Position numbers and translations under genes: made by a program
Part shown: positions 9,114 through 43,924 of the stretch, piece by piece
Layout of the letters: the number at the start of each line of letters is the position of its first letter
How positions within the stretch are numbered: the first letter of the stretch is position 1
DNA from: Marsupella aquatica
Taxonomy: Eukaryota; Plantae; Marchantiophyta
Length of the DNA: 64,000 nt
Direction: 5' to 3'
NCBI GenBank assembly: GCA_973895155.1
Contig: OZ316892.1
Location: 23,351,168-23,415,167, forward strand
The notes under the pieces: model-generated
The model's database searches: none
What the model saw: only the letters and a program-made list of their open reading frames with translations
What the model was told of the DNA's origin: nothing

Positions 9114-9125
9114 TGGTATTAGAGC
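9114..9125 (+). promoter_or_regulatory. Primer-binding site (tRNA-iMet 3' end) of the outer Copia
   Basis: TGGTATTAGAGC differs by one base from the canonical TGGTATCAGAGC and directly follows TCA. Confidence 0.75.
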
Positions 9126-16616: not shown

Positions 16617-17749
16617 TCAACCTGTTGTGCAACTTCTATTGAGAGCCCTATTTGCGTTTGAAAAATGGCTGTCATAATGTCTCCAAAGTTTTGAGATGGC
16701 CCGGCTCCATCTCCTGCAGATCCTCCGGCTCCCCCGGCTGCTCCGGCTCCCCCGGCTCCACCTCCTGCCCCTCCTGCCCCTCCATTGTTCCCCTCCATAG
16801 CCACACTAGTAGAAATTGGGGCAATTTAGACCAAACCTTATAGGACTAAGGCCACTAAGTCCTTTTTGGCAACCTTAAATGACTCGAAACCATTGCCACA
16901 GTTCACATGAACACTACAAGAGACTGTGAGTGCTTTTTGGTTTTGGATAAGACTATGAAAAATTGTACCCTACTTTGAGAATGTATGAACACTCTAGCAC
17001 ATGATGGGTTGTAGGGTTTAGTTGTGGGCTTTAATTTGATAATGGGCATATGGGGGGGGGGGGGTGTTGCACAATTCATTTGACGACCTCTTTACCAACA
17101 TCCCGCTAACTTGAACACGTACAAACGGCGTAAATGTTCAAATTCCCTAATTTTGAATATACTCCATAGTGGGTTTGGGGGGGTTTAGGGCTCAAGGGTG
17201 GGCCGGTTACATGTGAAGGGTGTGGGGGGTCACCACTAAAGGGGTTTAGGGGGGTTTATATGCCAAGGGTGGGCCGGTTAGGTCTCAAGGGGGTGGGGGT
17301 CAGTAAAGGGGGTTGTCCAGCCAGAGAACACTCAATTGAAATAGTGACGCAGCGATGTAGGGTAAACGAATACGGACCGTGGACCCTAACTTGTTTGCTG
17401 CCTTGGGAGGATCTGGAGAGCTGGAGGCGACATGCTTCATTGATCCTGAGCTTGCAAGTGGCGCTCTAAACCGGCCCCTGGCATTGCAAAGACAGTCTGG
17501 CCACAGTCGAGTTGTCAAGACGTTTAGGCGGTTTATATGTCAAGGCGTGGGGGTGGCTGGGTTTTCACTAAAGGGGGTTTAGGGGGGGTTTACATGTCAA
17601 GGGTGGGGGGTTTAGGGTTAAACCACAACTCGGGGTATATAATGACCCCGAGCCCTGCCCGAGCGCGTGCCACTCTGCCCGCTGGGTCAGCGGCCAGTTC
17701 TCCCCCGGAGGACTAACCCAGCGTTAGTAGGGCCACCTCCCCACCAGCC

Positions 17750-18850
17750 CTAGAGCCCTCGGTTGCCCCTGTGAGCTGCTGCCTGCCTCGCCCTCCGCTG
17801 CCCCTACAAGCTTCTGCCTGCCTCACCCTCCGCTGCCCCTGCAAGCTGCTGCCTGCCTGCCTCGCCCTCGGCTGCCCCTGCGATCTATTGCCTGCCTGCC
17901 TTGCCCTCCCCTCCTCCTACGAGCTGCTGCATCCTCGGCCTCCTCTTGCGAGCTGCTACTCTGCTTCTCTGTTGCATGTCTCTCCCTCTACCTTTGAGCT
18001 TATGGCTGCCATAGCCAGCCACTGACTGCCGCTGCTTGCTGCGCCCTTGGCTTCCCCTGCTTGTTGTGCCATCGGCTGCCCTTGCTCGCTTTTGCTCACT
18101 CCTCAGCTGTTGCTGAATCGATTTGCTACCGGCTGTTGCTCGTTGCTTCCTCGGCTGATGCTGCTTCAACTCACTACACCTTCAACTCGCTGCTGAAGCT
18201 TGCTGCTGAAGCTCGCTGCTGCCTCGTTGCTGCCTCGGCTGTTGCTGCTGAAGCTGAAGTTTGCTGCTGCCTCGGCTGAAGGTCGCTACTGCCTTGCTGC
18301 TGCCTTGGCTGTTGCCTTGGCTGTTGCTGCTGAAGTTGAAGGTTGCTGCTTCAACTCACTGCACCTTCCCAGCTGAATGTGTGCGCTCCTCCCTTCGACC
18401 TTACGGCTGCCATAGCCAGCCACTGTCTGCCGCTGCTTGTTGCGCCCTCGGCTGCCCCTGCTTGTTGTGCCATCGGCTGCCCTTGCTTGCTTTTGCTCAC
18501 TCCTTGGCGTTGCTGAATCGATTTGCTACCGGTTGTTGCTTGTTGCTTCTTCGGCTGATGCTGCTTCAACTTGCTGCACCTTCTACTTGCTGATAAAGCT
18601 CGTTGCTGCCTCGTTGCTGCCTCAGCTATTGCTCCCTTGGCTGTTGCTCCCTCGGCTGAAGCTCGCTGCTGCCTCGGCTGTTGCTGCTGAAGCTGAAGCT
18701 CGCTGCTTCAACTCGCATCTTCCTCCCAGCTGAAAGTGTGCCCCAAATTGTTGTTGCCTCGGTCCAAGCTCGCTGATCTTGCTGAAGCTTGCTCACTGCT
18801 GCCTTGGTTTCCCTCACCAACCTAGATCGCTGCTAAAGCTTGCTCACTGC
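17750..18850. repeat. GCT/CTG-rich low-complexity region with an internal duplication (about 17995-18250 vs about 18400-18700)
   Basis: Repeated GCTGCTG and CCTCGGCTG blocks. The overlapping ORFs here share repeated peptides and look non-coding. Confidence 0.75.
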
Positions 18851-19377
18851 TGCAGGTCAAGGGTCGCTCGCTCCATTCCTCAAGCTCCTTGTTCATGTCA
18901 TTGTGCCCACATTCAATGTTGAGGATAGAGGTGTTTTTCCAGCTTCAGGTTCACCAGGGAAGCTCCAACTCACTGGTCTTTTCTCCTCCTTGTTTACATT
19001 GTATAACATTCGATTAGGAGTCTGTTGATCTCGGCCTCATTGTGCTGTTGCGAGTTGGTAGCCCTTTTGCCCGAGTTTGTGTTGGGTTTTTTTGCTGCTG
19101 CTGTGAGCTTAGGCATTTCTACTGGAGTTTCAACTACGATTTTGTTGTTGTTACTCTTAGTCTCACTGTACTCCCAGTCTCCACTGACAGTGATTTTCTG
19201 GGCTCTCGACATCCATTTTGGCTCACATCCACGTTTGAGCGAACTTCCTAATCAAATTTGCTAGCGAATTTCTTCTCTGCTGCCATATTGTGATTGCAAT
19301 GTCAAGTTTCGAGCAATATGAGAATGTTGGGCAGCAACAGCATATGTGATATGTGACTGTTGCATTTTATCAGGAAC

Positions 19378-19776
19378 ATGGCACCAATGAGAAAGCTGAG
19401 AGCCACATTGACTGAACGTGACAATGGGAGCTACATCTTGAGTTGGCAGGATCCTACTGATGTTGACAATGCTCCACCCGTTGTCCGGATTGTTACATTG
19501 GAACAAGTCCAAGCTACATTTCCAGAGTTCTGCACTACAATTTCAGAGTGTCATGTGGATCTCAATCCTGCAGTCCCGATTGAACAGTTTATCATGTGCG
19601 CAGCATACAGTTATGCTGAAACTATCATGAGAAGGAAAAGATATCAGGTCTACACTCACTTGGCTTATGTAGCTGGGTTTTCTGATACAACCAAGTTTCC
19701 TGAAGCTGTTGAAGCTTGTGTGAAGGCAACTTGGCATGATGAAGGGGAGGAATTTGTAGGATTTATCCCAAATTAG
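19378..19776 (+). CDS. KolX-like protein (132 aa) with a P2X7 C-terminal 'ballast'-like motif
   Basis: The C-terminus RRKRYQVYTHLAYVAGFSDTTKFPEAVEACVKATWHDEGEEFVGF fits the RY.AYR...G...R..LP.CV...IR..FP...G.Y.GF pattern of KolX/P2RX7_C. The gene is convergent with the transposase, and AATAAA lies at 19835. Confidence 0.7.
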   Translation: MAPMRKLRATLTERDNGSYILSWQDPTDVDNAPPVVRIVTLEQVQATFPEFCTTISECHVDLNPAVPIEQFIMCAAYSYAETIMRRKRYQVYTHLAYVAGFSDTTKFPEAVEACVKATWHDEGEEFVGFIPN

Positions 19777-19850
19777 GAGTAGATAGGCTTCTGCTATGTT
19801 TCACTGTTGTTTGAAATTTTTGTGAAGAGCTACTAATAAACTTTTTGCAG

Positions 19851-19966
19851 AGTATAACTCCTGCTGGTTGGCAGCGGAAGGGGTTCAATTCCCCTTGGGA
19901 GTACATGCAGTAGAACTCCTGCTGGTTGGCAGCAGAAGGGGTTCAATTCCCCTTGGGAGTACATGC
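19851..19966 (+). ncRNA. Two tandem 58-bp tRNA-like units lacking an anticodon arm (mascRNA-like fold)
   Basis: Each unit has an ACTCCT/GGGAGT acceptor stem, a GCTG-GTTGG-CAGC D-like arm and an AAGGGG-TTCAATT-CCCCTT T-arm. Confidence 0.5.
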
Positions 19967-20109
19967 GTTACAATACCATAAAAGTTCCCTTGGGATGTGT
20001 CCATATTCAATGAAATCAAAATGAACAAGGTTGCCAAAGGGACTCAAATGATTACTATCTCTCAAAGCTGTTTTTTGTTGTCATATGTCATTCAATAACC
20101 ACAAACTTT

Positions 20110-20540
20110 ACTCATTCCCTCACTTGGTTCAAGTCCTAAAGTTTTATCATTCCCTCACTTGGTGGTCAAGTTATAAGATTGTCTGGCCACGAATGAAAAA
20201 ACTTGACAATTTTTTTTTTATAAAAGTGTGAAAAGTTATGAACTTTTCACATTCACTCACTTGGTGCTAAGGTTATAAGATTTTTTGGGCCACGGCATGA
20301 AAAAACCAAACTACAAAGATAATCATTCCCTCACTTGGTGCTCAAGTTATAAGAGTTTTTGGGCCACAGCATGAAAAAACAAGACTACAAAGATAATTTA
20401 TAAAAGTGTGAAAATTTGGCATAGCACTCCAGGTGTTTGTAATAGTGTACCCCCCCAAGCAGGTTTGCTAACCCTACCCAAAAAGGTTGGAATACAAGTG
20501 GTTTGCTAACCCTATCCAAAAAGGGTGGAATACAAGTCAT
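20110..20540. repeat. Degenerate tandem repeats between the convergent Kolobok genes
   Basis: CATTCCCTCACTTGGT-like units occur four times, and GGTTTGCTAACCCTA.CCAAAAAGG.TGGAATACAAGT occurs twice. Confidence 0.75.
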
Positions 20541-20864
20541 GCCAGGTCTCAGCCCTCCTCAAGGAATCACCCCTGCAATAGTAAACAATAAATTAGAATT
20601 GAGGTACTTTCACACTACAATGAATTGTTTCCAAAAAGATTGAGTCACAACTTTTCACTTACCTGAGGTATGTTAGCTGAGGTCATATATGGAGGTGTGA
20701 CTCCATATGTACGCTGACCTTATATAGAGACACTACTTGGGTGGTAATGTTTGAGCAACCAGGATCATCCTGCCAAAAAAACTCATTGTAATTAGAATTA
20801 CCATGAGCATAGAGTTTTCTTACATTTTATGTTGGCAATCATATTTATAGAGCAGTGTGTTACC

Positions 20865-23800
20865 TCATGGACGAGTCACACCATAAATGCGTTCACTTGT
20901 TGCTTCCTTCCAACTCGTGGTCCGGTCCACCAATACTCGTGTTCGAGGAGGGCGCTCCCTCACAGTAGTGTTCACAGGTGTGCGATTGTATACCTTCCAG
21001 ACATGTCTTCTGATATTCTCGTTCCAATCCATGGCAGCACAACTCAAACGGGCCTCATGACTGGCTGAGAAATGAATGCGCTTGGTCGCATACTTGCCCA
21101 TCACGGAATGGTAGGTCTCTGACATGAAATTCTCTCGGGCCATGGTATAAAACCTCATCTTCGCGGGAGTAATATATTTTCTCATGAATTTTTGCATGGC
21201 CTTATGAGTCTCTCCACCTACATATACAAAAAGTCATAAAATATCAACAATGCTAACCTAAGTTATAACTCACATTAAAATTGCATAATTAGTAAAAGAT
21301 TTACCATTCTCATAGTAATGGTCAACTTGGATGGCTCCAGGCTCCCCAAGATGCTGACAAGGCCGGTCAGATAGTCCTGCACATAATCTGTGATCCCCGG
21401 CCCAATGATCACCACAGTTGCCCAATTCGAAAGCCAAGGATGCAGCATCTCCACCACTGCATAATGAACATTGAAAGTTGTTATTTTTGTCAAAACTAAA
21501 TCATCACATCTGCAACAATTACTACACTTGGATATGTAAAAGCCAAGAAGTCACACCATATTAGCACTATGCATACCTGTTCTTACACCGACGACAACAT
21601 ACGTAGAACCATGTCTTCAGCTTTGTGGCAATGTTGTGCTGAGACAACTCTGGGTACTTGAGGCCACGTGTCGGAATACGTACTAGTTCTCCAAGAGGCA
21701 GCCCACGCATGTCACCTACTTTATGGATGAGTGCTTCCTTCCTAAGAGTAGAGTACCCTCTCACTCCCCTACTCTTCAACCAATCCTGTAACTTCTTAGT
21801 TGTGACTGCTTGCAACTCAGAACGAGATGCAGCAGTGTCAATGTCAATGGTCACAGTGTAGGTTGCTCTCACCATCTTCTCCACAAACTTCTTGATGAGA
21901 TTTTTGGCCTTATGCCACAAGTCTTTCTGGTTCCTAATCCCCATGTCCTCCACAATATTATCAATAGTGGCTTTGTCATCATGGATAACCTCCGTGATAG
22001 AGATCCCTCCCTCTCTCAAATTTTCCAATGCTCTTTCAGTACCCTTGTCCTCCATGTGCCAAGCATTTCTCTCCTCCCTCCTAGTAATTGTCACCATTTC
22101 AATTACCCTATTATCGTCAACATTGAGGATAGAGGTGGTACCATGAAAACCGCTCCGAGAAGAATCCCATCGAGTATCTAAGTACACTAGTAACCCAGGG
22201 TCTGTCATAAACAAAGCACACACACATGCACTATATATGAGAAACAGGTCAACTAAAACTTTGGCTAGAAGAGCATGGTCCTTGAATACCCCAAAAAGCT
22301 GAAGGACCTAAAACAGATAATTACTTACCAAGCTCAGTTGCTCGCCGCTGCTGAATATCATCCTTCAATTCCTGCCACATGTGCCTTTTATTTTCTTCCC
22401 ATTGTGCCTTCACAGCTGCTATCCATCCACCACTAGGTCGGCCACGACCACTCTGAAAATCATGCCAATGAGCTGCAGTAGGAACATGTAAACCAAGATG
22501 TGCAGCAACAGTAGCCAAAGACGTATAGGTGTGGCCAGCGCAAAGGGTGGAATGATACAACTGGGGGGTAATCATAGGAGAACTCCTCCCAGGCTCATTG
22601 TCACCAGTAACAAAAGTCCAGCCATGGCCATCCTCTCCACAACCAATGTGAATCGACCACAACTGATGCAACTCCCTCACTCGTTGAACCCTTGGACTCC
22701 TAGAACATCCATGTATATGACACCAAGGGAGTAGCCTATCAACAAAAGTAGCCAACAAGTTGCGATCAAAAAATGCTACCCTAGCAGGTTGACGAGGCGT
22801 TGCTCTACGAGTCGGGACAAGGTCCGGAGGCTGTGATGGCTGAGAATCAGGGATATGATACTTGTGTGAGTCTGTTTGTGCTGGTGGCCGAGGCCCAATA
22901 TCTGATGATGGCTGAGGATCAGGTGCAATGAATGGCTCCTGGTAGAAGAAGCCCACATACATATATCAAAAATTGTTATTCAGAAATTTGGAATTTGTAC
23001 GGGGAAAGGCAAGGAGAGTGTCAAAGGGAGGGGGGTCAAACCTGAAAGGTATCCTCATTCCCAATGTTGTTAGCTCCTAAAGCTGTAAGAGACTCCGGAT
23101 CATCATCTTGGTAAATGGCATCATCTTCTGCGTCTGATCCGTATTGCTCGGCAATATGCTCCTCCAAAACTACATCCTGCTCAAGAGGTGAATCCCATCC
23201 ATCCTAGAAACAATGTGGGGTAGAATAATTAGTACCCTCAAATATGATTTTACCTAAACCATAAACTTCAAGGGAGTAAAAAAAATTGCTGTTGGTCCTT
23301 GGGTATTGAAGTTATTTTGTTGAAAGACCCAAAAACCTGAACCCAAAGGCATGACTCACATTATGGAATGCACCCTTGTTTGGTTACTACAATGCTGCAT
23401 AACATAACAAAATAAAGAAACTGTTAAGAGTTGGGATACCAATGCTTGGAATAATGTGTCCACTCTTCATTAAGGTGTGGCTTTATATAGCCATGAGGTT
23501 ACATGGTCTAAGGTTAAAGGTAACCTTAGCTTAGGGTTATATGTAAACTATGGTTTACAACACTCCCCCTTGGTTAGTTTATGGGGGTGTAAAGTAACCA
23601 TGTGTTTAACCCTAAGGAATTAAATTGGTATTCCCTTTGATGTAGCCTCATTAAAACCTTGCTGCTTTCTTCTCAAGGAAAGAGTACTACCATCATTACA
23701 TGTGGGGATCCAATCTGTATCCATTTATTTTATGTTTCCTATAGTTTATGGGGGGTAATTATTTGCCATTATATGTGTAAGATGCAATTACCTATCCATT

Positions 23801-26800
23801 ATATGGAATTACTCGTGTAAGATGAACCTGCCTCTATGTAAAATTGTAACCTAAACTAAAACTCGCTCACAAAGGGTTCGTTAGTTCGTAGTTTGTCGAC
23901 GATAATAGAGACGGTGTGTATCGATCGGATTTCCGTGTCGCTTTTTGTTGGTGTGTGCGATGTGTTGTTGTTGCAGCTCTGTGTGCTTGGAGTCTCTGGC
24001 GATGCTTCTCTAGTGTGCTGCGCCATGGCTTTTTGTTTCGCATCCTGGTTGGTGTTGTTGCGGAGCCGACTGAATTCATGGTGGTAGCGTTCAGAAGTGA
24101 GCTGCTGGAACTTGGGAAGCTGAGCTTTAGGTAAACGCGCTCGTTATTTGTGTGCGGGGGTTGCGACACTATGGGCGGCAACTCGTTCCAGGTTCTGTCA
24201 TTTGTTTCGTTTCTTGCGTTCGTCCTTGGTCGTCGTTGAGGTATTTCCTTGTCTTTCTTGGAGTAATGCTGAAAGCTTTATCATTCCTATACCTGCTACA
24301 TGTTCACGGTGGGTAGCGGGCGGTAAAGGTTTCGTAAATATATCTGCTCTGTTATCCTGTGAGCGAATCCATTCGACTTGTATGTTCTTGCCTTGTTGTT
24401 CTTGGGTAAAGAAGAACTTGGGGTCTATATGCTTCGTTCTTTCTGTTTTCATGATGCCGTTAACAATTTGATCGATGCAGGCTTTGTTATCCTCATAGAT
24501 GACAGTGGGCGTAGTGATCGGTGGTTGTCCAGTGCTGGTTCTGATGTGGTTAATCATGCTTCGGAGCCAGATTGCTTCTCTACATGCCTCGTATAATGCG
24601 ATGACTTCCGAGTGGTTGGATGAGGTTGTGGTCATAGATTGCTTAGTGCTACGCCAGGATATCGCAGTTGTGCCTTGCAGGAAGACGTAGCCAGTTTGAG
24701 ATTTTGAATCTTGTGGGTCTGATAGATATCCTGCATCAGTGTATCCGGTGAGGGTATCAGTGGTGTCTTTTGGGAAGAAAAGGCAGAGGTCAGTTGTACC
24801 TTGGAGATATCTGAATATCCGTTTGAGGCCGTTCCAATGGCGGATTGTTGGTTGAGCACTGTGTCTGGCGAGGAGGTTAACTGAAAATGAGATGTCTGGT
24901 CTGGTATGGTTCTCTAGGTACATCAGTGCCCCCACTGCAGATAGATAAGGCTTCTCTGAGCCTAATATGGGTTCGTTTTCCTGTCTGCGCCTGAACATAT
25001 CCTTTTCAGGGTCAAGAGACCTTAGCTCCATTGGTGTCGATACCGGGTAGGATAGTTGCATATTGAATTGTTTGATGATTTTCTCTGTATATGTTGATTG
25101 GCAGATGAAAGTGCCGTTGTGGAGGTGCTCGAATTGTAGGCCTAAGCAGTATGTGGGTTCACCGAGGTCTTTCATCTTGAATACTCCTTGTAGTGTTTTG
25201 ACAGTTTCTTTGGTTATAGTAGGTGTCCCGAATAGGTTCACATCATCTACATATAATGCTAGGATTATAAATTCCTGCTGTTCCCGTTTGATGAAGATAC
25301 AGGGAGCTATATCTGTATTGGTGAATCCGAGTTTAATCATCTCCGTTTGGAACGTTTTATACCATTTCCTTCTGCTCTGCTTTAATCCGTTTATAGAGCG
25401 TAACACTCTGACTGCTAGGGTTGGTTGGCCCTGTCCTGTATTTCCAGTTTGTTTCTTCTGCATATATGTTGTATTGCCACTTTGCATGAGAAGATTTTTA
25501 ACCTGTGTATCAGGTACTATCTGTCGTATGCCCGACATGATTTCTGGATTCAGGTTCTAGGACGTCTCCCCCTGAGTATGTTCTCTCACTCTCTAGATCA
25601 ATGCCTGAGGTGCTTTCATGTATATTTCAGTGTCTAAGGTGCCATACAGGTACGCAGTTACCACGTCCATTAGGATATTAAGAAGTTGATGTTGTATGGA
25701 AAATGATATGAGGTATCTATATGTTATGGCGTCCATCACGGGTGAGTATGTAAGATCATAGTCCCTGCCTGGGACTTGTGTATACCCTTTTGCCACTAAC
25801 CGTGCTCTGTATCGTATGACTTCTCCTTTAGCATTCCGTTTTCTGATGAATGTAAAGCGGGAGTCAGTGTAATTGTTACCTGGGGAAGCCTGTATGAGTG
25901 GTCGGAAGACTTGTCGCTTGATGAGGGCATCCATCTCAGTGTTGATGGCTTCTTGCCACTTTGGCCAATCTGCTCGCTTTTGGGCTTCCTTCAGGGTAAG
26001 TGGATCTGGTGTATCACTGGTTATTTCTTGTACTATGTGGTATACGAATTGTGTATTTATGTCTATGGAATGTCTATTGTATATTGTCCCGTATGGTTAT
26101 ATTGAATGGATATCTCTTCATTGTCCATAATATGGGTATGGGTAAGGTCTGGGTGTACCGTACTTAGTGTGGTGACAGGTTTCGTTGAGGTGGGTTTTCC
26201 CTGCCGTGGGTGTACGTCTTTTGCGCCTGGTGGTCTACCCCTTTTTGTTCTTGGGGCTGTCTCTGTGGCGAGATCCTTGGATATCTGCACGCGTGCAGGT
26301 ATGTTTGCTGCTTCAATATGTGACCTTGTCACGTTTGCGGCATCATTAAATGCGTCTGGGATTTTTGTTAACATCTCATTGAGGTGAAGGAGTCGCCTCA
26401 CTTCTTCATCTGCTCTCTTGCTTCTCGGGTCTTGGTTGATGAGGGTCTGGTTTTGCCAGTTTAAGTTCTGGCGGTTTTGGTTATATAGAGTTGATCCACT
26501 TGATAATGCAGGGAATTGGTCTTCATAGAAGTGACAGTGTTGATATCGAGCTTTGAATAGATCGGATGTCGTGGGTTCCTATGGATGTAGAATCGAATCC
26601 TACATATATGCCTGGATGTCTTTGGGGTCCTATTTTGGTCTTTTTAGGCCCTAAGGTCGGTACCATGACCTTGCACCCGAATATGCATAGGTGTGATAAT
26701 TCGGGGGGCGTTCCGAATGCTAGGTGATAAGGTGTCTTCGAATTATATGCTGAAGGTCTGTATTTCAGTAGTGTTGATGCATGGAGGATGGCGTGGCCCC

Positions 26801-29800
26801 ATGCTGATAATGGTAAATTTGAGTGCATTAATAGTGGTCTGGCAATCATTTGGAGTCTTTTAATAACGGATTCTGCTATTCCATTTTGAAAGTGTACGTG
26901 GGGTATAGAGTACTGAGTATCAATCCCTGCTGTCCAGCAGAAGTCGTCGAAGGCTTTGGATGTAAATTCTCCTGCTCCGTCAACTCGTAATATGCGTGTG
27001 GGGTGCTCAAGGAACGCTTTCAATTTTAAGATATGCGCAAGTATTCTTGCGAATACCATATTACGGGTGGAGAGTAAGGAAATTTGTAGCCATTTTGTTG
27101 AGGAGTCGATGAGTACCAGGAAATATTTGAATGGCCCGCTTGGAGGGTCGATGGGGCCGCATACATCTGCATTGAGCTGCTCCAAAAAGTTGGGGATCTT
27201 GTAGACTATTTTTGGTATCGATGGGCGTGTTATCATCTTGCCCTGTGAGCAGGCCATGCACTGTGGAGCCATGGCGTTTGGTTTGGCCGTCTGTGGGATT
27301 CCTTTGGAGTCCCTAATTATTCTGGTGTACATATTAATGCCTGGGTGGCCGAGTCTGCAATGCCAGGTATATGTGATATCCGATGTATCCTTTTCAATGT
27401 GGTATGATTGTATCTTAGCTGCATATAGTCCAGGTGGGATTAGTGGTAAGTTCTCCATAATATGTGGTAATCCTTCCTTGTTCTGTACTAGTTGTAGGAT
27501 TTCAGTTTCGCCTTGTTTTGCTGTTCTTAGTTCATAGTTATTCGCGCGGATATCCTGAAAGTTGATGAGGTTCCTGGTAGCTGTAGGGGCGTATATAGCT
27601 GCTGCTATCGTAATTTTGGTCCCGCCTGGGAATATAATATGCGCTTTTCCTTTGCCTTCTTCTATTTGGTTGGGGCCTGCGATAGTTGTCATCGGTCTAG
27701 ATGATGGGGTGATAAAGTCAAAATATTTGCTTTGTGTCAGTATTGTATGTGACGTTCCGCTATCAATAATGCATATATTAGGGTCAGTTAATGGTGATGT
27801 ATACAGGTGTGAGATAGCAGTATGTGTTTCAATTGGGGCGTCTGCAGGATCTTGGTATGTCGCTATATTTTCTTCGATTTCCATATAGTTGCCTTGTGGG
27901 TTTTGTCTCGTTAATATGCGTTCATTTGTATAGCGTTGTGCCACTTGGTCAGATGCTCTGCATATCTTCCTGATGTGGCCGATCTTACCACATCTGTAGC
28001 ATAGTTTCTGATTATCGTTTGTTGGGTGATTTTGTGGGTTTCGCCATGTGCCCCTGCTTCTGTTGGTGCCACGGTTCCAGGTAGTTCTTTGTGTGGGGAG
28101 CGGGTTTCTGCCCTGGTAGGGGTATCTCCCTTGTCCCCTGAATTTTCCTCTGCCTCCCCTGAATGGTTTTCTTCCTCTTGGGTTGTCTCGTCGCCCGTCT
28201 TGGTAATTTCCATAGTGTGATTCGGGTCGATTGGGTGGTGGTTCTGATCCTACTGGTATTTTTCTTGCGTTATGTAGGGCTACAATTTGTTGTTTCTCTT
28301 CGACTAATAAATGTGCAATGAGGTCGGAGTAGGTCGTAAAATTCATATTTCGGTATTGGGTTCCCAGGGCTATATTAGCTTCTGGGAATGTTGACAGTGT
28401 TTTATCAATGCGGTCGTTATCATTTACTGGGTGGCCGCACATTTCTAGTTGAGATGTGATTCGGAATAAGGTGCTGTTATAATTTGCAATTGTTGTGTGG
28501 TCCATGACTCGCAGGTTGTGCCAGTCCCTGCGTGCTTCTGGGAGCCATATTTCGCACATGTGGTCGAATCTGGATTTGAGTTGATCCCATAGCTTGCGGG
28601 GATTTACCTCATTCATATATTCGTTCTTCAATTGTGGTGATAGGTGTTGCCTCAATAGAAACGCGGCTTTAGCTTTTTGTTTGAGGGTTAGATTTGTATC
28701 TGTATATAGTGTATCTTCAATTTCTTGAAATGCAAAATATGTTTCGACATCTGTGATCCATGTAAGGTAGTTTGATCCGTCTACCTTTAATGCAGGGAAG
28801 TGTAATTTCTCTATGGTATTCATTCTTAATACAATTTGGGATTGTAATGTTTAGTTACAATTGAATATGGAGGTTGCAGGGATTTGGTATTGGTATACCA
28901 ATTATGGTTGTCGTGTGTCTATCCTTGGTCTTCGGTATGATGAATCTTCGATGGCGCGTCTCGTATTAAATTGCGCTCAATTGGATGTGTAGCGATTTCT
29001 AGTTGATGGGGAAAATTTTGGGCTAAACAAGCGATATGGAGTAATTCTAATTGGTGAGGTGTTCTACATGTTCTCAGTGCCTGTACATTGCCCAAAATAG
29101 CGATGTGCTAGCGCTGAGAGGGGAAAAGAAAGGTGGGGGTCGGTTTGGGCGGTTATTGGGAGGAGGGAGAAAAAAAAGTGCCTTTTAAGAGTATTTTACT
29201 CGTGAAAACATCAAGGTGATCGAATTACCAAAAGACTGATTTCAGAAAAAAAAATGACTAGAGCATACTCGTGCTGATAACGTGTTAAGAGTTGGGATAC
29301 CAATGCTTGGAATAATGTGTCCACTCTTCATTAAGGTGTGGCTTTATATAGCCATGAGGTTACATGGTCTAAGGTTAAAGGTAACCTTAGCTTAGGGTTA
29401 TATGTAAACTATGGTTTACAACAGAAACTATGATTCACACTATTTGTAAGGGGAGAGTACTATGTGCTTGTTGGTATGGTGGTTTATAATGTGTGGACAT
29501 TGGTAGTCACAGTTTATGCAAGTATTGGACAATGTGTTCTTGTTGCTATTTACCAGGGCCTTTGTTATTGCTTGACATATAGATTATAATGTGTGGACAG
29601 TACCCTGTGGTGCGTCCCATGGCTCCCTAAACCCAAGAAACCCCCCAGCTCAAGCCGATTCCCGCAGGTTTCGTGCTTGGCGAGGCCGTTTCCGCGGCTT
29701 AGCGGCATGGGACGCTGCTAACCTTCTACTACTACTATTAACATTTTACACACATATACTGGACAGATCCTTCATCGGGTCATGAGATACGTAGCCGGCC

Positions 29801-32800
29801 TAATATAGGCCTTCCCCTGTCTTCCCCTCCATCTTGTTAGGTATGTTTGGATTCCGCCGCCGGAATGATCCCCAATAGGCTTGGTTAAGCCGCTAAGACC
29901 TCTCTCAGCTCGACACATCCAACTCTCACTCCCCTGCTTACTTTCCTTCCTTCTGTTGATGTGGGCACTCTTCACACAAGTTAATGCGACACACAAATAG
30001 CAAAATGACTCATTCTGACTGAGTCATACCATGCACTTGCCATACAAACAGTACATCTCATACACAAGTTCTGCGAACTAAGCCGTGAGGCCAACTCTAT
30101 TCAGCTCTTAGGCATGAGGAAACATGAATATACACAAGGGTCACTGTATGACTAACCGAGAGCTTCTCGTACTACTTGATCCCAGCCCGGCTGGTGCAAA
30201 CTAAAAACTTGCTAAAGAAGAGGCCCTGAGCTCCCCGCTGCCCAGGTACTTATCCTGGTAGTGGATCCGCCCTTCTTTGCATCGTAAGCCTAATCTACTT
30301 AACAGTAATCTACTTGCCCGAATCTACCTATGTACAGCAAGGCAGGAGCACAAGTGTTGCTTCTACCAGTGGGACCGCAATCCCACTAAGCTAAGTGTCA
30401 GGGCCGCTCCTGGTTCTGATCCTAATCCTAAACGTGGAGATCCGTGCCCGCCCTGCCCACTCACGCCTCCTCCCTCCACGTCCGCCCTCCCTAAAAGGAA
30501 CGGCGCCCTTGCACCGTCACGACACCGGTGGTGGATCCTCAATGGACGCCCCCAACACATCCTCCTCAGCCACTGCCGTTGGCCCGCCTACTGACAGATT
30601 ACCTGCCATTGACCGAGTCAACTCTCCATCGGCCTGACTGGGTCCACCTTCGGCTTCAGCCTCGACACCGGCCTCGGCAATACCCACGGCTTCGGCTTCA
30701 GCCACTCCCACGGCTTCGGCTTTAGCCACTCCCACGGCTTCGGCTTCCCCTTCCCCTAGGGTAGTTGGATCCTTAGCCGTGACCCTGTCTGGGGTCGGTG
30801 CTGGGTCTACCTCCTTGATCACCACGGCCTGTGAAGTCGTATTACTCCTTGACCCTGAAGGTTTCCGCTTCTTCTTCGTTGGTGGCTCGGCAGCTGGTCC
30901 CTTCCCCTTCCCACTTACCTCCGGCACTGGTGCAGGTGGCGCGGCTTGTCCTTCGGCAATTACCACCCCTGGTAACTGGTTTGTCCCAACAGGAGATGGA
31001 CCTGCTGCAGCTAAGCATTTAAATACTGCGGCTTGTTTCTTCAACCGCTCTGTTTGGTTGTCGGCCCGCCGCTGTAGGTTCTCCATCTTCCTCGTGATTT
31101 CCTCCAACTCCTCTTGGGTTTCATCCAGGTCCTTACGTGCCCCCTCCAGCTCGTTTTTGGCCTCCTCCTGCTCCCTGTGGGCTTCCTCCAATTCCTTCTT
31201 CAAGGTAGCCCTCTCCTCCTGGGTTGCTCTTAGCTCCTTGTCGAGCTCTGCAATGATGACAGACTCCATCTGGTTCATCTTGGCGTAAGTCTGTTCGAGC
31301 ATCTCGTCCTTCTCCCTTAGGTCGGCCTTGAAGCTGGCCGTCAGGGACGCAAGCTCCTGCTGCAGCGCCATAATCCCTTGATAGGATTTCCCTAACTCGA
31401 CCTCCTTCTGCTCAAGGGCTCCGCGGATTTTCTCGAGCTCCCCTTTCAACGCCCATTCCTTTCTTTGGGTCTCTGCCATGGCCCGACTGTTGGCTGTTAT
31501 GTGGGCCTCCTCTGTATTCTTCAGCTCTTGCTTCCACTTTTCCCTTTCTTTGATCGTGTCGGCCAACTCTTCCTGCGTCTGAGTCAGTTTATCCTTGATA
31601 TTCTGATTATCAGCCTGCGCGGCGTCCAACTGCCCCTGCATGATGTTCAGCTCATGTTGTTTAATCCGCAGTTCATCTTGGGCTTTCTTGGCCGCCCTTA
31701 GATCTTCAATCTCGGCTTCCATCCTCCTAAGCCGCCGAATGACCTCATCCTTCTTGCTTCTCTCTAAAGCCACCGCTTCTTCTAATTGGTGCTTCTCCAA
31801 CTGCTCCCTATGGAAAAAGGGTCCTACCTCCAACTCCTCTCCAAAGATGTCGAGCGCAAGTTCCCCACACATCTCACCATACTCCATGGCTCTATTCTTA
31901 GCGTAGGTGGAGTAAGTAGAAGTGATCGGCATCGCCCATCGTGGCCTCTGCTCCCAAGCCGTCCTGCGGATCTCTTCAATCGTGGCTAGAGGTTTGCTTC
32001 CTTTTTCGGCTAGCCGCCTGATGTCCTCCGGCCAATCTCCTCCTGGTAAATCCTTTTCCTTAGCCAGGGCGGCCTCTTCCTCCTGCTTGATTCGCTCCTG
32101 AAATTCCTGCACCGTCTGTTTTATGCCGTCGAAGCTCGGGGGAGCAACATCTGGTGGGGGAGACTCAGGGCTACTCTGCTGGTTGGGGTCCCCTCGCACT
32201 ACCCTTGGAAGTGTGGGGACAAACCGGCCACAGGTCCTTACTCCTGGAACGTGATGGTCCGACCCATAGCCGGAATTATCATGGCTGCAGTCCTCCACTG
32301 CCTCCTCTACCTCTTGGACGTCCGGCTTCTCCCTCTCCTCTTCGTTGGTAGGAGCTTCAGGCAATTCTGCCTCAGATTTGGAGCTTGAGGTTCCCACGTA
32401 CATTCGAACACCTGGCTTGGATTCCGGCCTGATTCTCTCCTTGTCTCCAGCAAAGGGGTTTTCTCTTGTGAGCCGGTGTAGGCCTACCTCTGTAGTAGTG
32501 TCCTGCATTGTTGCCGTTGCCGTTGTTTTTGCCGATGCCGATCTCTTTTCTTTCTCCAGTAGTTTCAGCAGACTCTGCATGCCTGGTTGCTGCATCGGCA
32601 AGTCTTCCTTCCTGGGCCTAAACACCTGCTCGATCGTAGGACTAACAGGTGGTTGAGGCTTCTCAGCCAACGGCCTCGGCGTTGGAGCTTCCTCGGGTGC
32701 CCTTACCTGCAGGGGAAGTACCGGGGCAAAAGTCTGACCTCTGGCATACCGGCACAACAGCGGCATGTGATAGCCAAGCCGCGACACGCTCCCCATGCCG

Positions 32801-34837
32801 ATTACCTGCTGCTCCTCCTTTAAGATCTTCTTCAATTGGTTGAGGAGGTACCCGTTGTAGTCCCGGCTTGGGTCTGGCCTTTCTGCCAGATAGACCTGTG
32901 CTTTGCCGATCTCTGCCCTCGGCAAGTTACAATGCATGGTCACCCGCAAGAAGTCGATCATCTCTCCTATGTGCGGGTTGGTGCAGGTGTTCCGGAAGAA
33001 GCCATTCTTCGTTGATGGCCCGGGGAACGACCGGAACTCCTTGTCAGGCAAGGTCTTCCTGGTATCAACTTTGGTCTTATTGCCCATCGGCAAGCCAAAC
33101 ACTTCGGCAATCACCTTGGGAGTAAGATAGAAATCCTTCCCATATATCCTCGTGCAATTGGTCTCGGGTTCCCATGACCCCACGAATTCTAATAGGTCTG
33201 ACTCCGGTACCTCCGGCTTCAGCCATGGTAATCTTACAAAGGCCTCCAAGCCGGATCCGGCCATGAAGCCTTGGTACTTCTTGGTCTGCATGGCCGTAAA
33301 GCATGCATCCTCCTCCCGTGCAAAATGTAGTTGCACCTCCACCGGTAGGGTTGCCGCCCAGCCCTTCCAGGTGTCATCCCTGGTTGGAATGGCCTTGATG
33401 GGATCGACCTCCTCCTCTTCGGCTTCTCCCTGCCTCCTGCTCTGCTGCTCGGCTGGCTTCTTTGGTGCCGCCGACCTCGTTCTTTTTGCCGGGGTGGCTT
33501 CATCGTTGACGGCTCCCTTCCTCTTCATCTCTGCTGCCGTGGAGGTTTCTCCTAGCACCGTTGCCTGGGTCCACCTTTCCGTGCTACCCTTTAATTCCCA
33601 GTGTATGTCATTGCAGTTCTTGATGGCCTCTCGGATGCCGACGACGCTGTCTTTGCAAAACAGAAGATCGTCGAGTTGATTGGAAGTAGGCGTCCACAGG
33701 AACTCGTCCTTGATGAGTTCGCCTCCTAAGAAAGCCGTCTTCTGCAGCTCCCACAATCGAGCGAGCTCCTGCCGTTCTCGAGCTGCCCTTTCTGACTCCT
33801 CGTCCTCGTAAGTCTTGATGTACTCAGTTGCCCGTTCGAACAGGCATCCCCAGAAATGTGCCGCTTGATTGACGTTGCTCATACCCTCCTTAGGTTGATC
33901 GTCGGTATCTACTCTCTCCCCGAGTGCTTGCCTAAGCAGCTGACAGTAGTTGGCCTCCCGTAGTCGTCTGCCTAGTTCGTGCTCGCAAATGAGCCACCAT
34001 CTCCTGCAAGCGCTCCTTACCCCTCTCCTCTGCCGGTCCTTCTTCCCGTTGATCCTTCCTAGCCGCCGACGCTTAACGCACCCTAACCCTAATCGGGTTT
34101 TCACCCTCAGCCTTACCTCCGGCCTCTGCCCGGGTTCCATGGTTGCCCCTAATTGTTTATATTTTCCTTGTTTTGTCACTATACTAAGGTGTTCCTAGGG
34201 TGCCTTCCTGCTTTACCCACTTAACCGGCCGAGTGATTCCTGTCTAGGCATCACATACCCTAATTTTGTTTACTATTTCACTTGTGGTTTATTAGGACAA
34301 ATATTTGAGTACCCTGATATTTGTTATTATAAATAAGAACCTATATATATTTGTTTCTGCCCATTATGCATAGTTGACATAAGTACCATCAGCGTGAGTA
34401 AAAACAAATAATGATAAAATGGGCAAATGCTAAGTGAATGAAAGAAGGTATCCACATACCTGACGTGGTGGTCGTGAAGGCTGACCCATCTGCTGCTCAC
34501 TCGTGGGCGATGGTTGTGCCTCGGGCCCAATTGGAGCTGCCTCTGATGCTCGCCATACCCGAAGCTCCTGAATTGTCGGTCGCGCACAATCAAGTAACCA
34601 TGTGACAACAGTGGAGTGTGTGGTATCCTGTCCAAGTAGAGCTCTAAGGTCCTCCCACTCATCCCACCGATCTAGTGGGACCCGGATTTCGGGCTTGGCA
34701 TCCGGTCTCCTCCTTTTCTTGTAGTCTATGTCATCACTCGGATACCGCTGTCTTGGTGGACCACCTCCCCGGGGGGGGGGGGGGCGATTCCGCCTCCCAT
34801 CCGGAAGAGGGGGGGGGGGATGGCCTGCCGCACTCAT
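20865..34837 (-). CDS. Kolobok-like DDE transposase, 6 exons, 759 aa, apparently intact frame
   Basis: Exons 34837-34460, 23203-23042, 22938-22329, 22201-21577, 21456-21305 and 21217-20865 are all GT-AG, phase-compatible and total 2280 nt. Motifs include LDTRWDS (D1), VIHDD (D2), KDLWH (DxxH), HWAGDHRLC..C and SETYHSVMGKYATKRIHF...ARLSCAAMDWNEN (E). A SAP/HeH-like segment LQDWLKSRGVRGYSTLRKEALI is also present. Confidence 0.82.
23422..29423 (-). mobile_element. Ty1/Copia Bianca-lineage LTR retrotransposon
   Basis: Identical 141-bp LTRs (23422-23562, 29283-29423) with TG..CA ends and TSD GAAAC. PPT AGGGGGAG lies next to the 3' LTR. The PBS CGTTATCAGCACGA is complementary to the anticodon region of tRNA-Ile (half-tRNA priming). 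The gag starts FPALKVDGSNYLTW. Confidence 0.93.
24198..28823 (-). pseudogene. Bianca gag-pol polyprotein (gag, CCHC knuckle, protease, integrase, RT, RNase H) split by frameshifts
   Basis: ORFs 26523..28823, 26063..26401, 25593..25934 and 24198..25538 carry CYRCGKIGH, IIDSGTSHT, WHCRLGHPG, LRVDGAGEF, MDVVTAYLYG, LYVDD and ADIFTK. Confidence 0.9.
29606..34255 (-). mobile_element. 4650-bp solo-LTR-like insertion containing a long ORF
   Basis: Termini TGTGGTGC...GCATCACA with a perfect 5-bp TSD TACCC (29601-29605, 34256-34260). No terminal direct repeats and no gag/pol were found. Confidence 0.75.
30517..34179 (-). CDS. 1220-codon intronless ORF: plant-transposon (Athila ORF1/PMD-like) domain plus long coiled coil; the true start may be an internal ATG (e.g. 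33882)
   Basis: GLEAFVRLPW...DLLEFVGSWEPETNCTRIYGKDFYLTPKVIAEVFGLP resembles Ty3/Gypsy accessory-ORF domains. An E/K/Q/L-rich heptad region follows, and there is a TATAAA on the minus strand near 34155-34160. Confidence 0.7.
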   Translation of the reverse strand: MTKQGKYKQLGATMEPGQRPEVRLRVKTRLGLGCVKRRRLGRINGKKDRQRRGVRSACRRWWLICEHELGRRLREANYCQLLRQALGERVDTDDQPKEGMSNVNQAAHFWGCLFERATEYIKTYEDEESERAARERQELARLWELQKTAFLGGELIKDEFLWTPTSNQLDDLLFCKDSVVGIREAIKNCNDIHWELKGSTERWTQATVLGETSTAAEMKRKGAVNDEATPAKRTRSAAPKKPAEQQSRRQGEAEEEEVDPIKAIPTRDDTWKGWAATLPVEVQLHFAREEDACFTAMQTKKYQGFMAGSGLEAFVRLPWLKPEVPESDLLEFVGSWEPETNCTRIYGKDFYLTPKVIAEVFGLPMGNKTKVDTRKTLPDKEFRSFPGPSTKNGFFRNTCTNPHIGEMIDFLRVTMHCNLPRAEIGKAQVYLAERPDPSRDYNGYLLNQLKKILKEEQQVIGMGSVSRLGYHMPLLCRYARGQTFAPVLPLQVRAPEEAPTPRPLAEKPQPPVSPTIEQVFRPRKEDLPMQQPGMQSLLKLLEKEKRSASAKTTATATMQDTTTEVGLHRLTRENPFAGDKERIRPESKPGVRMYVGTSSSKSEAELPEAPTNEEEREKPDVQEVEEAVEDCSHDNSGYGSDHHVPGVRTCGRFVPTLPRVVRGDPNQQSSPESPPPDVAPPSFDGIKQTVQEFQERIKQEEEAALAKEKDLPGGDWPEDIRRLAEKGSKPLATIEEIRRTAWEQRPRWAMPITSTYSTYAKNRAMEYGEMCGELALDIFGEELEVGPFFHREQLEKHQLEEAVALERSKKDEVIRRLRRMEAEIEDLRAAKKAQDELRIKQHELNIMQGQLDAAQADNQNIKDKLTQTQEELADTIKEREKWKQELKNTEEAHITANSRAMAETQRKEWALKGELEKIRGALEQKEVELGKSYQGIMALQQELASLTASFKADLREKDEMLEQTYAKMNQMESVIIAELDKELRATQEERATLKKELEEAHREQEEAKNELEGARKDLDETQEELEEITRKMENLQRRADNQTERLKKQAAVFKCLAAAGPSPVGTNQLPGVVIAEGQAAPPAPVPEVSGKGKGPAAEPPTKKKRKPSGSRSNTTSQAVVIKEVDPAPTPDRVTAKDPTTLGEGEAEAVGVAKAEAVGVAEAEAVGIAEAGVEAEAEGGPSQADGELTRSMAGNLSVGGPTAVAEEDVLGASIEDPPPVS

Positions 34838-37800
34838 AGTAACCTACCCTAAAACCTATGTAAAAAAAACCCTATCTACACTCTAGAACGGAGACCGGAT
34901 GCCAAGCCCAACCCGGTGAATAATAACAAAGTTGTACAAAAAGAATGCAAAAACACAAGGAGAAAGAAGAAGTACTAACCCAACAATAGAGAAGTGAAGA
35001 GGAATGGCAAATGTGAACCACACATACCCTTTTGCCCCGTTACCACTCCTCCACCCCTCTTCCCCATTGGGTACATTTGTGACTGTTGGATCATGGAGGT
35101 TCGAAAGGGTCTTGTAACTAACCCTAATTGCCTCCCTAAGTGGCGGCTGCACTAACTCCCGTAGTTGCCATCCGCATGGGGTACAGGATACAGCAGAAAC
35201 TGCCAAAAATTGATACTTTACCTGTGTCTACGAGAGTGAAGCTTGAACCTGAGACCTGTGGGAAGAAAGGCAATGATTCCAACCGATGTGCTATGAGGAC
35301 TCTTCGAATACAGGGGAACCATAACTAATGATAAAGTAGTAACAGAATCCCAGCCCCCATGCCGGGCGGAGTGAGCCCTGTCCGTGGGTACCTCCGCAAC
35401 GTCTGAGGAACCCTTACAAAGGCCGGCGGCTCCCACCCGCCTATATCCCCTGCAAGGTGTATTTCAGAGGCCAGGTGTCCACTGCCCTGCCTGCCCGAAA
35501 ATTTGAAATTTGAAATTGTGTAGGCAACCAATCAAAAGAGTCTGTTTCTTTTTTGGTTGTTTCTCACTTACTTTGGGTCATTTTTTATTGCTGTTTTTTG
35601 CTAGGCGTAGATCTCAAAGAGATCTTCAATCTGAGCCATAGATCACCTCATACGGTGAACAAATGAGATGCCTGGGAGGTTCGATCGGAGGGCTGTGGTG
35701 AGGCACGAATCCGCAAACGCGACACTCGCGTTTCTGGAATGACTACTCCGGGTGACCCGGAGTACTTAAACCACGATTAGTGGTTTAAGGGGATGGGGGG
35801 TTTAGGGACCATTGGATGGAGTCCATAGATCCCCACCATCAAAAAGTCGCATATTGGAAGTTTACTCAGCTGGGCTATACTTTGAGAGGGCCGAGTAGTC
35901 ATGACTTAGCACTAGTTTTTTAGGGGCTAGACAAGGCTTGGAGTGTAATTAATTTAGACACTTGAAGTAGAGGGAATGGGGGCCTTGGGTTAACATGAAA
36001 CCTACATATTGATGGTCGCGATCACTCTGAAAGGCAATCTCTTTTCATCCGGATGGCTAAGATCACTCTAGGGGTTGCCATGTCATAGTAAGGTTTGCGC
36101 CAAACGGCTCTTTGCACCCTTTCACCCTTGCGCCTTTCAGTCGTGTTTTACTTTTCTCACAAAGTATTGAGGCTCAACGTTGAATGTTGCGGTTAGTGTC
36201 TGCCACTCAGCGTTTGGGGCGAGAGGGTCGAGGGGTTTAGCAAGGTTGCGCTGCTGTTTTGCCTCAAGAGTGTGCAATCAAGGCTGCAATCAGGGCTCCA
36301 GGAGCTACGGGAGCGTTGTGCAAAGTGCTGCGGGAGGCTATGCAATGTGTTGCGGGAGTGCTGTGCAAAGCGCTGTTGTAGGAGTGCTACTGCGGGAGTG
36401 TTGCGCAGGAGTCTGAGCTCAGTGGGAGGGTTTAGGTTTGGCTGATCGATGTGCATTTACATTTGTGGATAGTAGTTTGCATTGGAGTTGCAAAGGAGCT
36501 CGCCAGAGTTGTGAAGGAGCAGGTGTGGGAGTTGCGGGCTGCCATCAGCCCTCCTGTTTTTCTTTTACTCCCACAGTGAGCTCCCGTATGAGCTCTTGTG
36601 TGAGCTTTGTTCAGCTGCGGTGGGTGCTGAGCTGATTTCCGTGCTCAACTGTGCTGTGCTGATTTTCGTCTAACAAAGCTCGAGGGAGGGTTGTCGGTTG
36701 GACGTTGGAGCTGCACTTGTGATATTTTGGGGTTCGGGCAAAGCATTGTCGTTTTGCTAACGCTGCGTGGTGGAAATTGGACCTGCCAACTCCTTGTCTA
36801 TGGTGTTGTGGAGTTGGGCGAGCTGCGACAAGGGACCGAGCCGGGCGACCTGTGAATCAAAGCCCATCGACCGCTGTTGAAGGTTTGATGTCCAGATTTC
36901 TTGCCTGTGAGTCCCCATGGTTGTAGTGTCTATCCCGGTCTCTTGCGTAGTGCTCGGCGTAGTGCCCATGATTCGATAGGGAACTGATTCATGAACTGTG
37001 ACTGCTTTTCTGCTCTGCGGTGTGAATATGTTGGCACTTGCTGCACTATGTTGGCAACGGAAAGCGTAGACTCGGGTTCGGATTCAGAGTCAATGTTCAC
37101 AGAACTCCATTTTTCAACATTGCTTTTGCTTTGTTGCTGACTGTCCTTGCCCGTAAAAGGAGTTATATTCTCTGAGCTGCGGTTGGTTTGCAAGTCCCTG
37201 TAAGGTATCAATGTACCTTTCTTCTCATTTTTTCCGCCTCACTTCCCTCTAAACCTTTCACTTCGAGAAATTACCTGAAACAAATCACTGTCTTTCTTGT
37301 GTCTATGTATGTAGTGTCTGAATTTCATTGCAATCTATTGCATACCAATCACTGCAAGCCATTGCCATTGCTATCTCTATTATGTCTCTATTGCTATCTT
37401 CAAGCTGTCTGCGCAACTCTTAGGTGAGCTCGTTCATTGATGATTCATCGATTCTATGTTTTGAGCTGGACTTGCGCTTTGTATTGCATTGCAAAGCTTT
37501 GACTTTGAACTACCATTTCTCGTTCATAGCTACGATGACCACTACATTGCCTAACTCTGTTCATTTGCAGTAGCACAAATACTCGATTTCATTGACAGCT
37601 TTGTCTCTGCATCTATTTTCGCTCTCTTTTTCCCTCCCCTTGAATTGTGGGCCTTAAAATGTTAGTTGGCTTATGTAGTTTTTATGTCCCTCCGCTATGT
37701 CAATGCGTGTTTCATTGCATCAGGGCATCAGTCGTCGTTTGCCTATAACATTTCTGTTCATTCTCTGTCCACTCATTTGATGTAATTCTTCCCGTTGCTG

Positions 37801-42900: not shown

Positions 42901-43627
42901 ACCCTAAACCCTAAAACACTTGTCTCATTGTGGGTCTCTTCTAATATTTATGTATGTTTGTGAACTGCTAGAATGCGTATGTTCAACCAGATGTGGGGGT
43001 ATTATCACGAGCAATGCGACAACACCTTGTCGAGGCCATGAAAGATTGGCGTAGGGCTCAAGCTTCAGCGAATGAAGATATCCCTCCTGAGCAAGTATCT
43101 AATGCCACCAATGACATACTTGAGGATGAGAGGGCCATGGATGATCTCATGCACCAGTTCTATGACGTAGAGGATGGTGACCATGGTATGGGTGATGCAT
43201 TTGACACCACAACACATGCTCATCATGACATTCCTTCACGTTGAGGTTCCCCTCTAGACAATGGGAGGAAGCTCGTGACCATGCACAAACAAGGATTTTT
43301 GAGGGGTCACAGCTGTCTCGACTATCAGGAATAATGTTATTGTTGAACTTGCAACAAAGACATGGTGCAATCAATCTCCTTCTTGATGATCTTTTCAGGA
43401 CTTTGCATAGTCGGATTTTTCCAGAAGGGAACTGCTTGCCTAGTTCCTGGAAAGCAACAAAAAAGGTGTTGAAATCCATAGGTCTCAAATATGAAGTTAA
43501 ACATGCTTATTTTCCTCTTATCCCTAGATTACGGCACCAGTACCGATGTGCGGAGTTGGCTGAGTATATGGTGTGGCATTCCAAGAACCGGTCAGATATG
43601 ACTTCAGATCCGCCCACCATGCGTATG

Positions 43628-43924
43628 CTCGGGGGTCTCACTATATGGGGACCTCCCCATCGCCTGCGACGTTTTTAGGCCTCGGACCCCCTAAAATGTA
43701 AGAAAAAAATTTTATTTTTTAACCCCTATAAAGTTGGAATATTCTTGGAATATTCTAAAATTTGGATTAAGAAGACCCTTATATTCTTATAAGTCTCAAA
43801 ATTGAATTTAAAAGACCCTATTGTTCTTCTACAAAAATTCTTAAGTCTTCCCTTAGAACCAATAAAATGACCCTATCCTTCGTCGCACGTGATATGCCAT
43901 TTTTGTGGAAGTGAGACCCCCGAG
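43628..43924. mobile_element. 297-bp MITE, copy 2, inserted in the TnpD coding sequence
   Basis: Perfect 14-bp TIR CTCGGGGGTCTCAC with 8-bp TSD TGCGTATG. Near-identical to 40008-40304. Confidence 0.93.

Follow-up and report, generated by a model that had tools for sequence, protein, structure and literature searches.

The 64,000-nucleotide stretch of the Marsupella aquatica genome analyzed here (the window; contig OZ316892.1 of assembly GCA_973895155.1, positions 23,351,168 to 23,415,167 of the forward strand) carries at positions 17622–35784 an element that an original prediction, made from the letters alone, had described as a complete two-gene Kolobok-like transposon. It comprises a transposase gene on the minus strand, a short convergent open reading frame (ORF) on the plus strand and two later insertions within the first intron of the transposase gene. 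The element is bracketed by TTAA target duplications at 17618–17621 (left) and 35785–35788 (right). ACCAC opens both ends, and the left terminus (17622–17639, plus strand) matches the right one without gaps at 14 of 18 positions. Thus, the predicted TTAA duplication, the imperfect 18-bp terminal inverted repeats and the atypical ACCAC termini were all recovered. As sole evidence the terminal match is modest: a match of at least 14/18 was reached by 7 of the 29,588 TTAA–TTAA pairs in the window, five of them in a foldback at 7.6–9.9 kb, one being this element and one another pair.

The boundaries were settled by an empty-site joint found at the exact ends in contigs of the public runs X3 and X4 (two of four runs), in which position 17617 is followed directly by 35785 and four letters fit either side. 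The depth at this joint was 207 and 350, against approximately 52–70 and 78–122 for the listed interior contigs, so that the target is itself probably repetitive, and sister copies may be the origin of the empty form; even in that case the joint shows the pre-insertion sequence. The target sequence at 17170–17617 and 35789–35810 is a repeat of multiple copies with many telomere-like TTTAGGG units. With one insertion only, the readings TTAA/ACCAC, TA/AACCAC and a blunt junction all yield the identical empty site, and the cut register therefore cannot be fixed from it. In the TTAA register both ends read AC..GT and thus depart from the published Kolobok rule of RR..YY termini (R, purine; Y, pyrimidine); together with the register this counts against a plain Kolobok assignment. 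One could instead place the cut of the same element one base further out, which would give a TA duplication and AACCAC ends, with the purine rule upheld and the target rule as the exception. This agrees with the shared empty site, and duplications of KolobokP elements are reported to range from 3–4 to 4–5 bp in the accessible part of PMC9587614. On the other hand, when an animal Kol0 locus (L005) is read in the usual TTAA register, purines follow TTAA at both of its ends, so that the second base of the present element differs in any register, and an inner copy of the terminus at 35766 likewise reads TTAA-ACCAC. We consider the shifted cut unlikely and use the TTAA register below.

Behind the 18-bp match, the ends showed a two-part layout that had escaped the original prediction: an ACCAC tip followed by a subterminal palindrome with a common arm. 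The left palindrome (17629–17652) has 8-bp arms and an 8-bp spacer, with the arm motif common to the right end, and the right one (35744–35764) has 9-bp arms and a 3-bp spacer. The arm occurs three times in the 64 kb, always at the element ends, a count reached by 2 of 100 shuffles. At the right end lies a terminal hairpin (35766–35788) in which an inner TTAA-ACCAC is the mirror image of the true end with its TTAA; this inner copy belongs to the element because the empty-site joint skips it. The last 60 bases of the right end fold better than 200/200 shuffles (z −6.65); those of the left end fold less well (6/200 shuffles).

More than half of the element's length is foreign to it, as 10.7 of 18.2 kb consist of two nested insertions in intron 1. 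The first (23422–29423, minus strand; 6.0 kb) is a copia long terminal repeat (LTR) retrotransposon with identical 141-bp LTRs, a GAAAC duplication and gag-pol in four frames; a joint lacking it (23392 to 29425) was seen at low depth in 4/4 runs. The second (29601–34255, minus strand) is a 4.65-kb insert of very high copy number, its depth being hundreds of times that of its surroundings. It contains a 1225-aa ORF of no clear family whose C-terminal half is a coiled coil; no LTR or terminal repeat was found in it, and the joint without it (29600 to 34256, with 4–6 shared letters) occurred in 4/4 runs. Once both insertions are removed, the core element measures 7,501 bp. It is therefore complete with respect to its ends and reading frames, while intron 1 is not in its original state. 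Thirteen coding differences from the run contigs were listed among 40 of 1,176 rows, and 10 of them change a residue. Taken together with the 10.7-kb growth of intron 1, this indicates that the copy is probably drifting rather than an active master.

The transposase gene consists of six exons, as had been predicted, with GT-AG borders, and encodes 759 aa without a stop. All exons lie on the minus strand: exon 1 at 34460–34837, supported by 22 alignments to collected proteins that start within the first 60 residues; exon 2 at 23042–23203, which is acidic, poorly conserved and the least certain, although its GT-AG borders preserve the frame; exon 3 at 22329–22938; exon 4 at 21577–22201; exon 5 at 21305–21456; and exon 6 at 20865–21217. 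A cryptic exon at 23360–23394 was rejected since it breaks the frame. The Riccia protein P0001 is colinear with the transposase over 733 columns at 39% identity, exon 1 included across the 11-kb intron. Exon 4 encodes D392, D458 and the expected DxxH motif (residues 477–480), exon 5 a zinc finger and exon 6 the catalytic E676. The zinc finger does not follow the H..H..C pattern originally written for it, which is absent; the actual motif is H609-x4-H614-x2-C617-x7-C625, and its residues are conserved among relatives. All these positions (D392, D458, D477–H480, the finger and E676) align across plant and animal Kol0 rows. The SAP-like insertion proposed earlier lies in exon 4 at approximately 21687–21821. 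Matches to Pfam SAP were weak in the window itself, and the domain was found in 15 of 21 Riccia relatives, while SAP structures head the list when the full-length profile is compared with the PDB. The best matches to the predicted fold of the transposase were two tied DxxH-type transposases, Hermes (Z 10.6, root-mean-square deviation 9.0, 287 residues aligned) and ISCth4 (Z 10.2, 6.2, 237 aligned). We found neither a THAP match nor a C2CH pattern in exon 1 or in the Riccia relatives; THAP is present in the animal protein P0186.

Searches with exon 4 returned six Riccia proteins, and the profile of Riccia proteins 28 matches, all from Riccia. A search of cluster representatives gave 173 matches, and the 30 looked up comprised Riccia (6), Calypogeia fissa (2), Chara braunii (6), Closterium (3), animals (2), one protein labeled Anaplasma, one cluster of mixed marine labels and nine unnamed or ‘hypothetical’ entries. 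By sequence, the nearest relatives of the transposase appear to be liverwort proteins, followed by those of Chara and Closterium. No related loci with flanks were obtained from metagenome contigs (profile A3 and protein P0041) or viral contigs (profiles A4 and A5). Comparison of the Riccia profile (A4) with an animal profile (A5) gave a probability of 99.0 and an E-value of 6.7e-18 over 300 columns, with one long gap of approximately 57 residues at the SAP insert. The animal set is anchored to Kol0 in two ways. Inspection by eye showed agreement of its member P0186 with Kolobok_2_DR of Data S5, and three of seven loci fetched with A5 gave pieces matching Pfam P2RX7_C on the strand opposite the transposase, with L005 in addition having the TTAA and purine ends noted above. 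These loci (L001–L007) carry animal-type Kol0 transposases, several with KolX pieces, within bacterial bins (Dehalococcoidia, Sedimenticola, Poribacteria), and are likely mis-binned host DNA. In the P0055 cluster, a near-identical plant-type Kolobok transposase carries both Pyramimonas and Prorocentrum labels.

Phylogenetic analysis was less decisive. In the first tree the window protein fell within a set of 14 rows, 11 of them from liverworts, with support of 98/96. Several points weigh against firm placement: the wider green group reached 89/79 only; in a second tree, built without the SAP columns and without four gappy or long rows, the green group was not one clade, the window lay in no starred set and its grouping with animal Kol0 proteins was not rejected (approximately unbiased test, p-AU 0.066); and the trees contained Kolobok-like rows only, MuDR, P and hAT being absent from them. 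It is likely that the green members form one lineage. The Kolobok-like assignment stands on the profile match, the motifs and TTAA; RR termini and a THAP domain were not found.

The element might instead belong to MuDR/Mutator, with TTAA and ACCAC being coincidental. Among 21 Riccia relatives, eight match Pfam PF20700 (‘Mutator-like transposase’), the best at E 0.00035, and DxxH is common to MuDR as well. Yet PF20700 does not discriminate, because it also matches the animal Kol0-type proteins P0170, P0186 and P0169 above its cut-off, and no MULE, SWIM or MuDR family match was obtained in the window exons or the Riccia relatives. The target duplication of MuDR/Mutator elements is 8–11 bp, whereas the empty site permits at most four duplicated bases, which largely refutes this reading. 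A zinc finger placed after DxxH and ahead of the final E is present here and is missing from MuDR, P and hAT according to the part of PMC9587614 available. We thus regard a MuDR origin as extremely improbable. As for piggyBac, with which TTAA is shared, no family match was found in the window or the Riccia relatives, and the core is of the DxxH type and matches Kolobok.

In place of THAP, residues 27–92 of the transposase (34562–34759, minus strand) form a conserved strand-helix-helix block of approximately 60 aa, which the original prediction had missed and which resembles the TCP domain and other ribbon-helix-helix domains. When profile A9 of this block was compared with the PDB, TCP15 was the top match among 177,635 sequences (E 0.0026). 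This profile was made after TCP had appeared in the searches; it adds 13 near-full-length domain matches that are not in profile A7, and omits P0006 (a near-copy of P0003), truncated rows and rows of non-liverwort type. The other two profiles matched TCP15 structures at E 0.017 and, over 55 columns end to end, at E 0.17. Pfam TCP gave E 0.15 with the window exon 1 frame. In the Atlas, the nearest named clusters were ribbon-helix-helix families at 0.78, and unnamed 80-aa eukaryotic clusters, with molluscs commonest, were nearer still (0.87 and 0.83); all of these are leads only, the latter hinting that the domain is older than TCP. No match at E 0.001 came from a library of viral folds. Structure prediction returned a homodimer with a score of 0.68 versus 0.02 for the best control, with contacts agreeing to at least 96%, a predicted local distance difference test score (pLDDT) of at least 72, and an interface that includes strand 21–29 and helix 2 of both copies. 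Among solved eukaryotic structures, 17 of 29 pairs reached the mark for a dimer, as against none of 30 single chains; solved folds remembered by the predictor may account for a pass.

Other results speak against a relationship with TCP. Borderline matches to Pfam TCP were restricted to 1/10, 1/21 and 1/14 members (E 0.012–0.083, below the cut-off), and in the search that gave E 0.017 short ankyrin matches ranked above TCP. We set these ankyrin matches aside, as they cover 17–20 columns of repeats. GGNCCC is the binding site of TCP proteins; the 200 bp next to each end contain no such motif, which leaves a TCP-like target sequence unsupported. The basic motifs DRHxK and RxRRxR of class I TCP proteins, as given in the part of PMC9682074 available, are absent from the A7 and A9 alignments.

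The likeness could therefore reflect convergence between unrelated ribbon-helix-helix domains, or capture of a host TCP domain by the transposon, and we give this only slightly less than an even chance. The borderline E-values and the two missing basic motifs fit such a view, as does the strongest likeness being to the class I protein TCP15 (PCF6 gave E 0.1–0.46 only), a pattern that late capture would also produce. What it accounts for less well is that three profiles listed TCP yet no other ribbon-helix-helix protein of the PDB, and that the A7 profile took in diverged N-termini from Chara and from unnamed eukaryotes. On this evidence we think that the N-terminal domain is probably homologous to TCP. 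The TCP fold is described as ribbon-helix-helix and its ancestry as unknown in the accessible parts of PMC9682074 and bioRxiv 2022.11.22.517060. A more speculative proposal, which we hold as a minority view, is that the plant-specific TCP factors (TB1, CYCLOIDEA, PCF) were domesticated from the N-terminal ribbon-helix-helix domain of this streptophyte Kolobok lineage. Under such domestication the lineage would survive as AC-ended, SAP-bearing elements in liverworts and as transposase relatives in Chara and Closterium.

The second gene of the element is an ORF of 132 aa (19378–19776, plus strand) convergent with the transposase gene, from whose stop it ends 1,088 bp away. Degenerate C/T-rich tandem repeats (17744–18775, plus strand) lie upstream. 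Two homologues (64% and 71%) indicate that the ORF is a real gene. A convergent small gene exists as predicted; its KolX-like character is weakly suggested by a motif and by one KolX piece. Residues at the C-terminus are spaced as in the third ballast motif of PMC7016195. When the published ballast consensus including its upstream residues was scored, this C-terminus ranked first of 21,448 positions in the window, a result equaled by 2 of 2,000 shuffles. Profile comparison with one KolX piece gave E 4.8e-4, ahead of 150/150 control ORFs. The following points weigh on the other side: the third motif alone was equaled by 148/2,000 shuffles; a second KolX piece gave no match (E 0.64); HMMER gave E 4.7; with a pooled KolX profile the homologues ranked 1 and 3, and the ORF itself only 8 of 136; and no link to P2X7 was detected by Pfam, PDB or fold searches. 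All three zinc-cysteine clusters of PMC7016195 are absent, the ORF having four scattered cysteines at 52, 58, 74 and 114. Its model, made from three sequences, had a pLDDT of 50, and fold searches with it gave nothing above Z 5.7, P2X7 being absent among the matches listed. The only PDB sequence matches, to formate dehydrogenases over 27–29 columns, were taken as chance. An Atlas search with the ORF was blank, and no fused copy occurred among 196 collected proteins. The proposed connection to the P2X7 ballast is weak, with C-terminal motif spacing and gene position in its favor and with Pfam matches, fold matches and the zinc cysteines lacking.

We favor, with some reserve, the view that the 132-aa gene encodes a KolX-derived helper that has lost its zinc sites. 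KolX as the source of the P2X7 ballast has already been published, and zinc cysteines are likewise absent in KolX-like proteins borne by piggyBac elements (PMC9587614, in the part available). The original prediction implied that the element is a diverged but canonical member of Kol0 whose second gene is a true KolX (ballast) gene. The convergent two-gene layout, which recurs at loci L003, L006 and L007, the best ballast score at the C-terminus of the small ORF and the match to one KolX piece agree with it. The missing cysteine clusters, the lack of THAP, ends that are not RR and the failure of the second KolX piece and of HMMER do not, making this account distinctly improbable.

On these grounds we interpret the locus, with good confidence, as a 7.5-kb DNA transposon that inserted at TTAA and later received two insertions in intron 1; its movement by Kolobok-like cut-and-paste and its place in a green-plant branch in which a TCP/ribbon-helix-helix-like domain has replaced THAP are likely. 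The ends, the empty site, the open six-exon frame, homology to Kolobok transposases and relatives in liverworts, Chara and Closterium are shown by the data. A tentative mechanism can be drawn from DxxH-type transposases and the element's anatomy. The N-terminal domain would dimerize and attach to the subterminal palindrome at each end. Cleavage at the ACCAC tips, and the joining of these tips to a TTAA target, would fall to the RNase H-fold core (D392, D458 and E676, together with DxxH and the zinc finger). The SAP insert may add a non-specific grip on DNA or chromatin, and the small protein may assist transposition.

Elsewhere in the window, the foldback mentioned above (7597–9982) is a long nested inverted repeat with several TTAA-anchored arms. 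At 41890–46414, a CACTA-type element (Transposase_21) adjoins an ORF with a SET domain. The region 51303–61884 contains two divergently oriented DUF7869 genes, 39% identical over 557 columns, whose DNA is similar in inverted orientation. Related ORFs are located upstream of both, and the space between the genes is occupied by a 637-aa ORF without a Pfam family and an ORF for an N6/N4 DNA methylase. The region looks like a large composite mobile element.

Kolobok elements are known chiefly from animals. The original prediction also held that such a plant lineage is little described, and our literature search agrees: the open-access publications covered (Repbase, Dfam and subscription journals being outside this set) gave no description of it, nor of a transposon origin of TCP. 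The following statements refer to the available portions of each source. PMC9587614 takes TTAA and RR..YY as the defining features of Kolobok and names only a chlorophyte and rhodophytes among plants, and PMC6004289 reports the usual N-terminal THAP and AG ends in frog elements. When 1,007 plant genomes were screened for 17 superfamilies, Kolobok among them, active clusters were reported in seven others only (PMC12973397). The Riccia sorocarpa genome paper (PMC11735767) makes no mention of Kolobok, and seed-plant genome papers bear single Kolobok labels, the spinach paper listing one without detail. The verified ends and the many liverwort relatives extend Kolobok into land plants, and they show that annotation by the RR end rule can overlook entire lineages. 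Homology of the N-terminal domain with TCP, if real, would provide a testable origin for a major family of regulators of plant development. Should the small gene prove to be a KolX without zinc sites, it would indicate the portion of the ballast that is important to the transposon.

Among known proteins, the Riccia ‘SAP domain-containing’ hypotheticals (for example R1sor_008396) and CAM6094701/CAM6099334 of Calypogeia fissa belong to the same transposase family; P0001 is 39% identical over the 733 columns given above, and P0117 62% over 125. In their annotations, the Riccia and Calypogeia relatives are called hypothetical or SAP proteins and, in a few cases, ‘Transposase.’ The KolX-like proteins of piggyBac-2_GrCh and piggyBac-14_PI (Data S6, as far as accessible) ride on piggyBac transposases, unlike the 132-aa protein here. 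The TCP domains (approximately 59 aa) of TCP15 (7vp6/7vp3) and PCF6 (5zkt) show the same strand-helix-helix pattern over 45–55 columns, predicted to form an intertwined homodimer in our case; the present domain differs from them in lacking DRHxK and RxRRxR and in its position at the start of a transposase. Kolobok_1_MicRcc299, Kolobok_1_CCri and Kolobok_1_KlNi, from red and green algae, are likewise Kolobok transposases; KlNi may stand for Klebsormidium. Inspection by eye showed an additional CCHC finger, located behind the first D, in MicRcc299 and KlNi, and the SAP insert in none of the three; among the names in the portion of Data S5 (PMC9587614) from which they were taken, none was recognized as that of a liverwort, moss or Chara. 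The Kol0 lineage (Kolobok-1_XT, Kolobok-2_DR; Kojima and Bao, 2022, PMC9587614, in the part available) has the same DDE core with DxxH, a zinc finger before the last E and no second CCHC finger, a TTAA site, short terminal repeats and a small second gene, which is convergent in the Kol0-type loci fetched here. In contrast to Kol0, the Marsupella element has AC..GT rather than RR..YY ends, a TCP/ribbon-helix-helix-like domain in place of THAP, an insert of approximately 57 residues with SAP likeness after DxxH, a second gene without zinc cysteines, and a plant host. Since the terminal rule failed and three modules differ, we place it as a variant rather than a canonical member of Kolobok.

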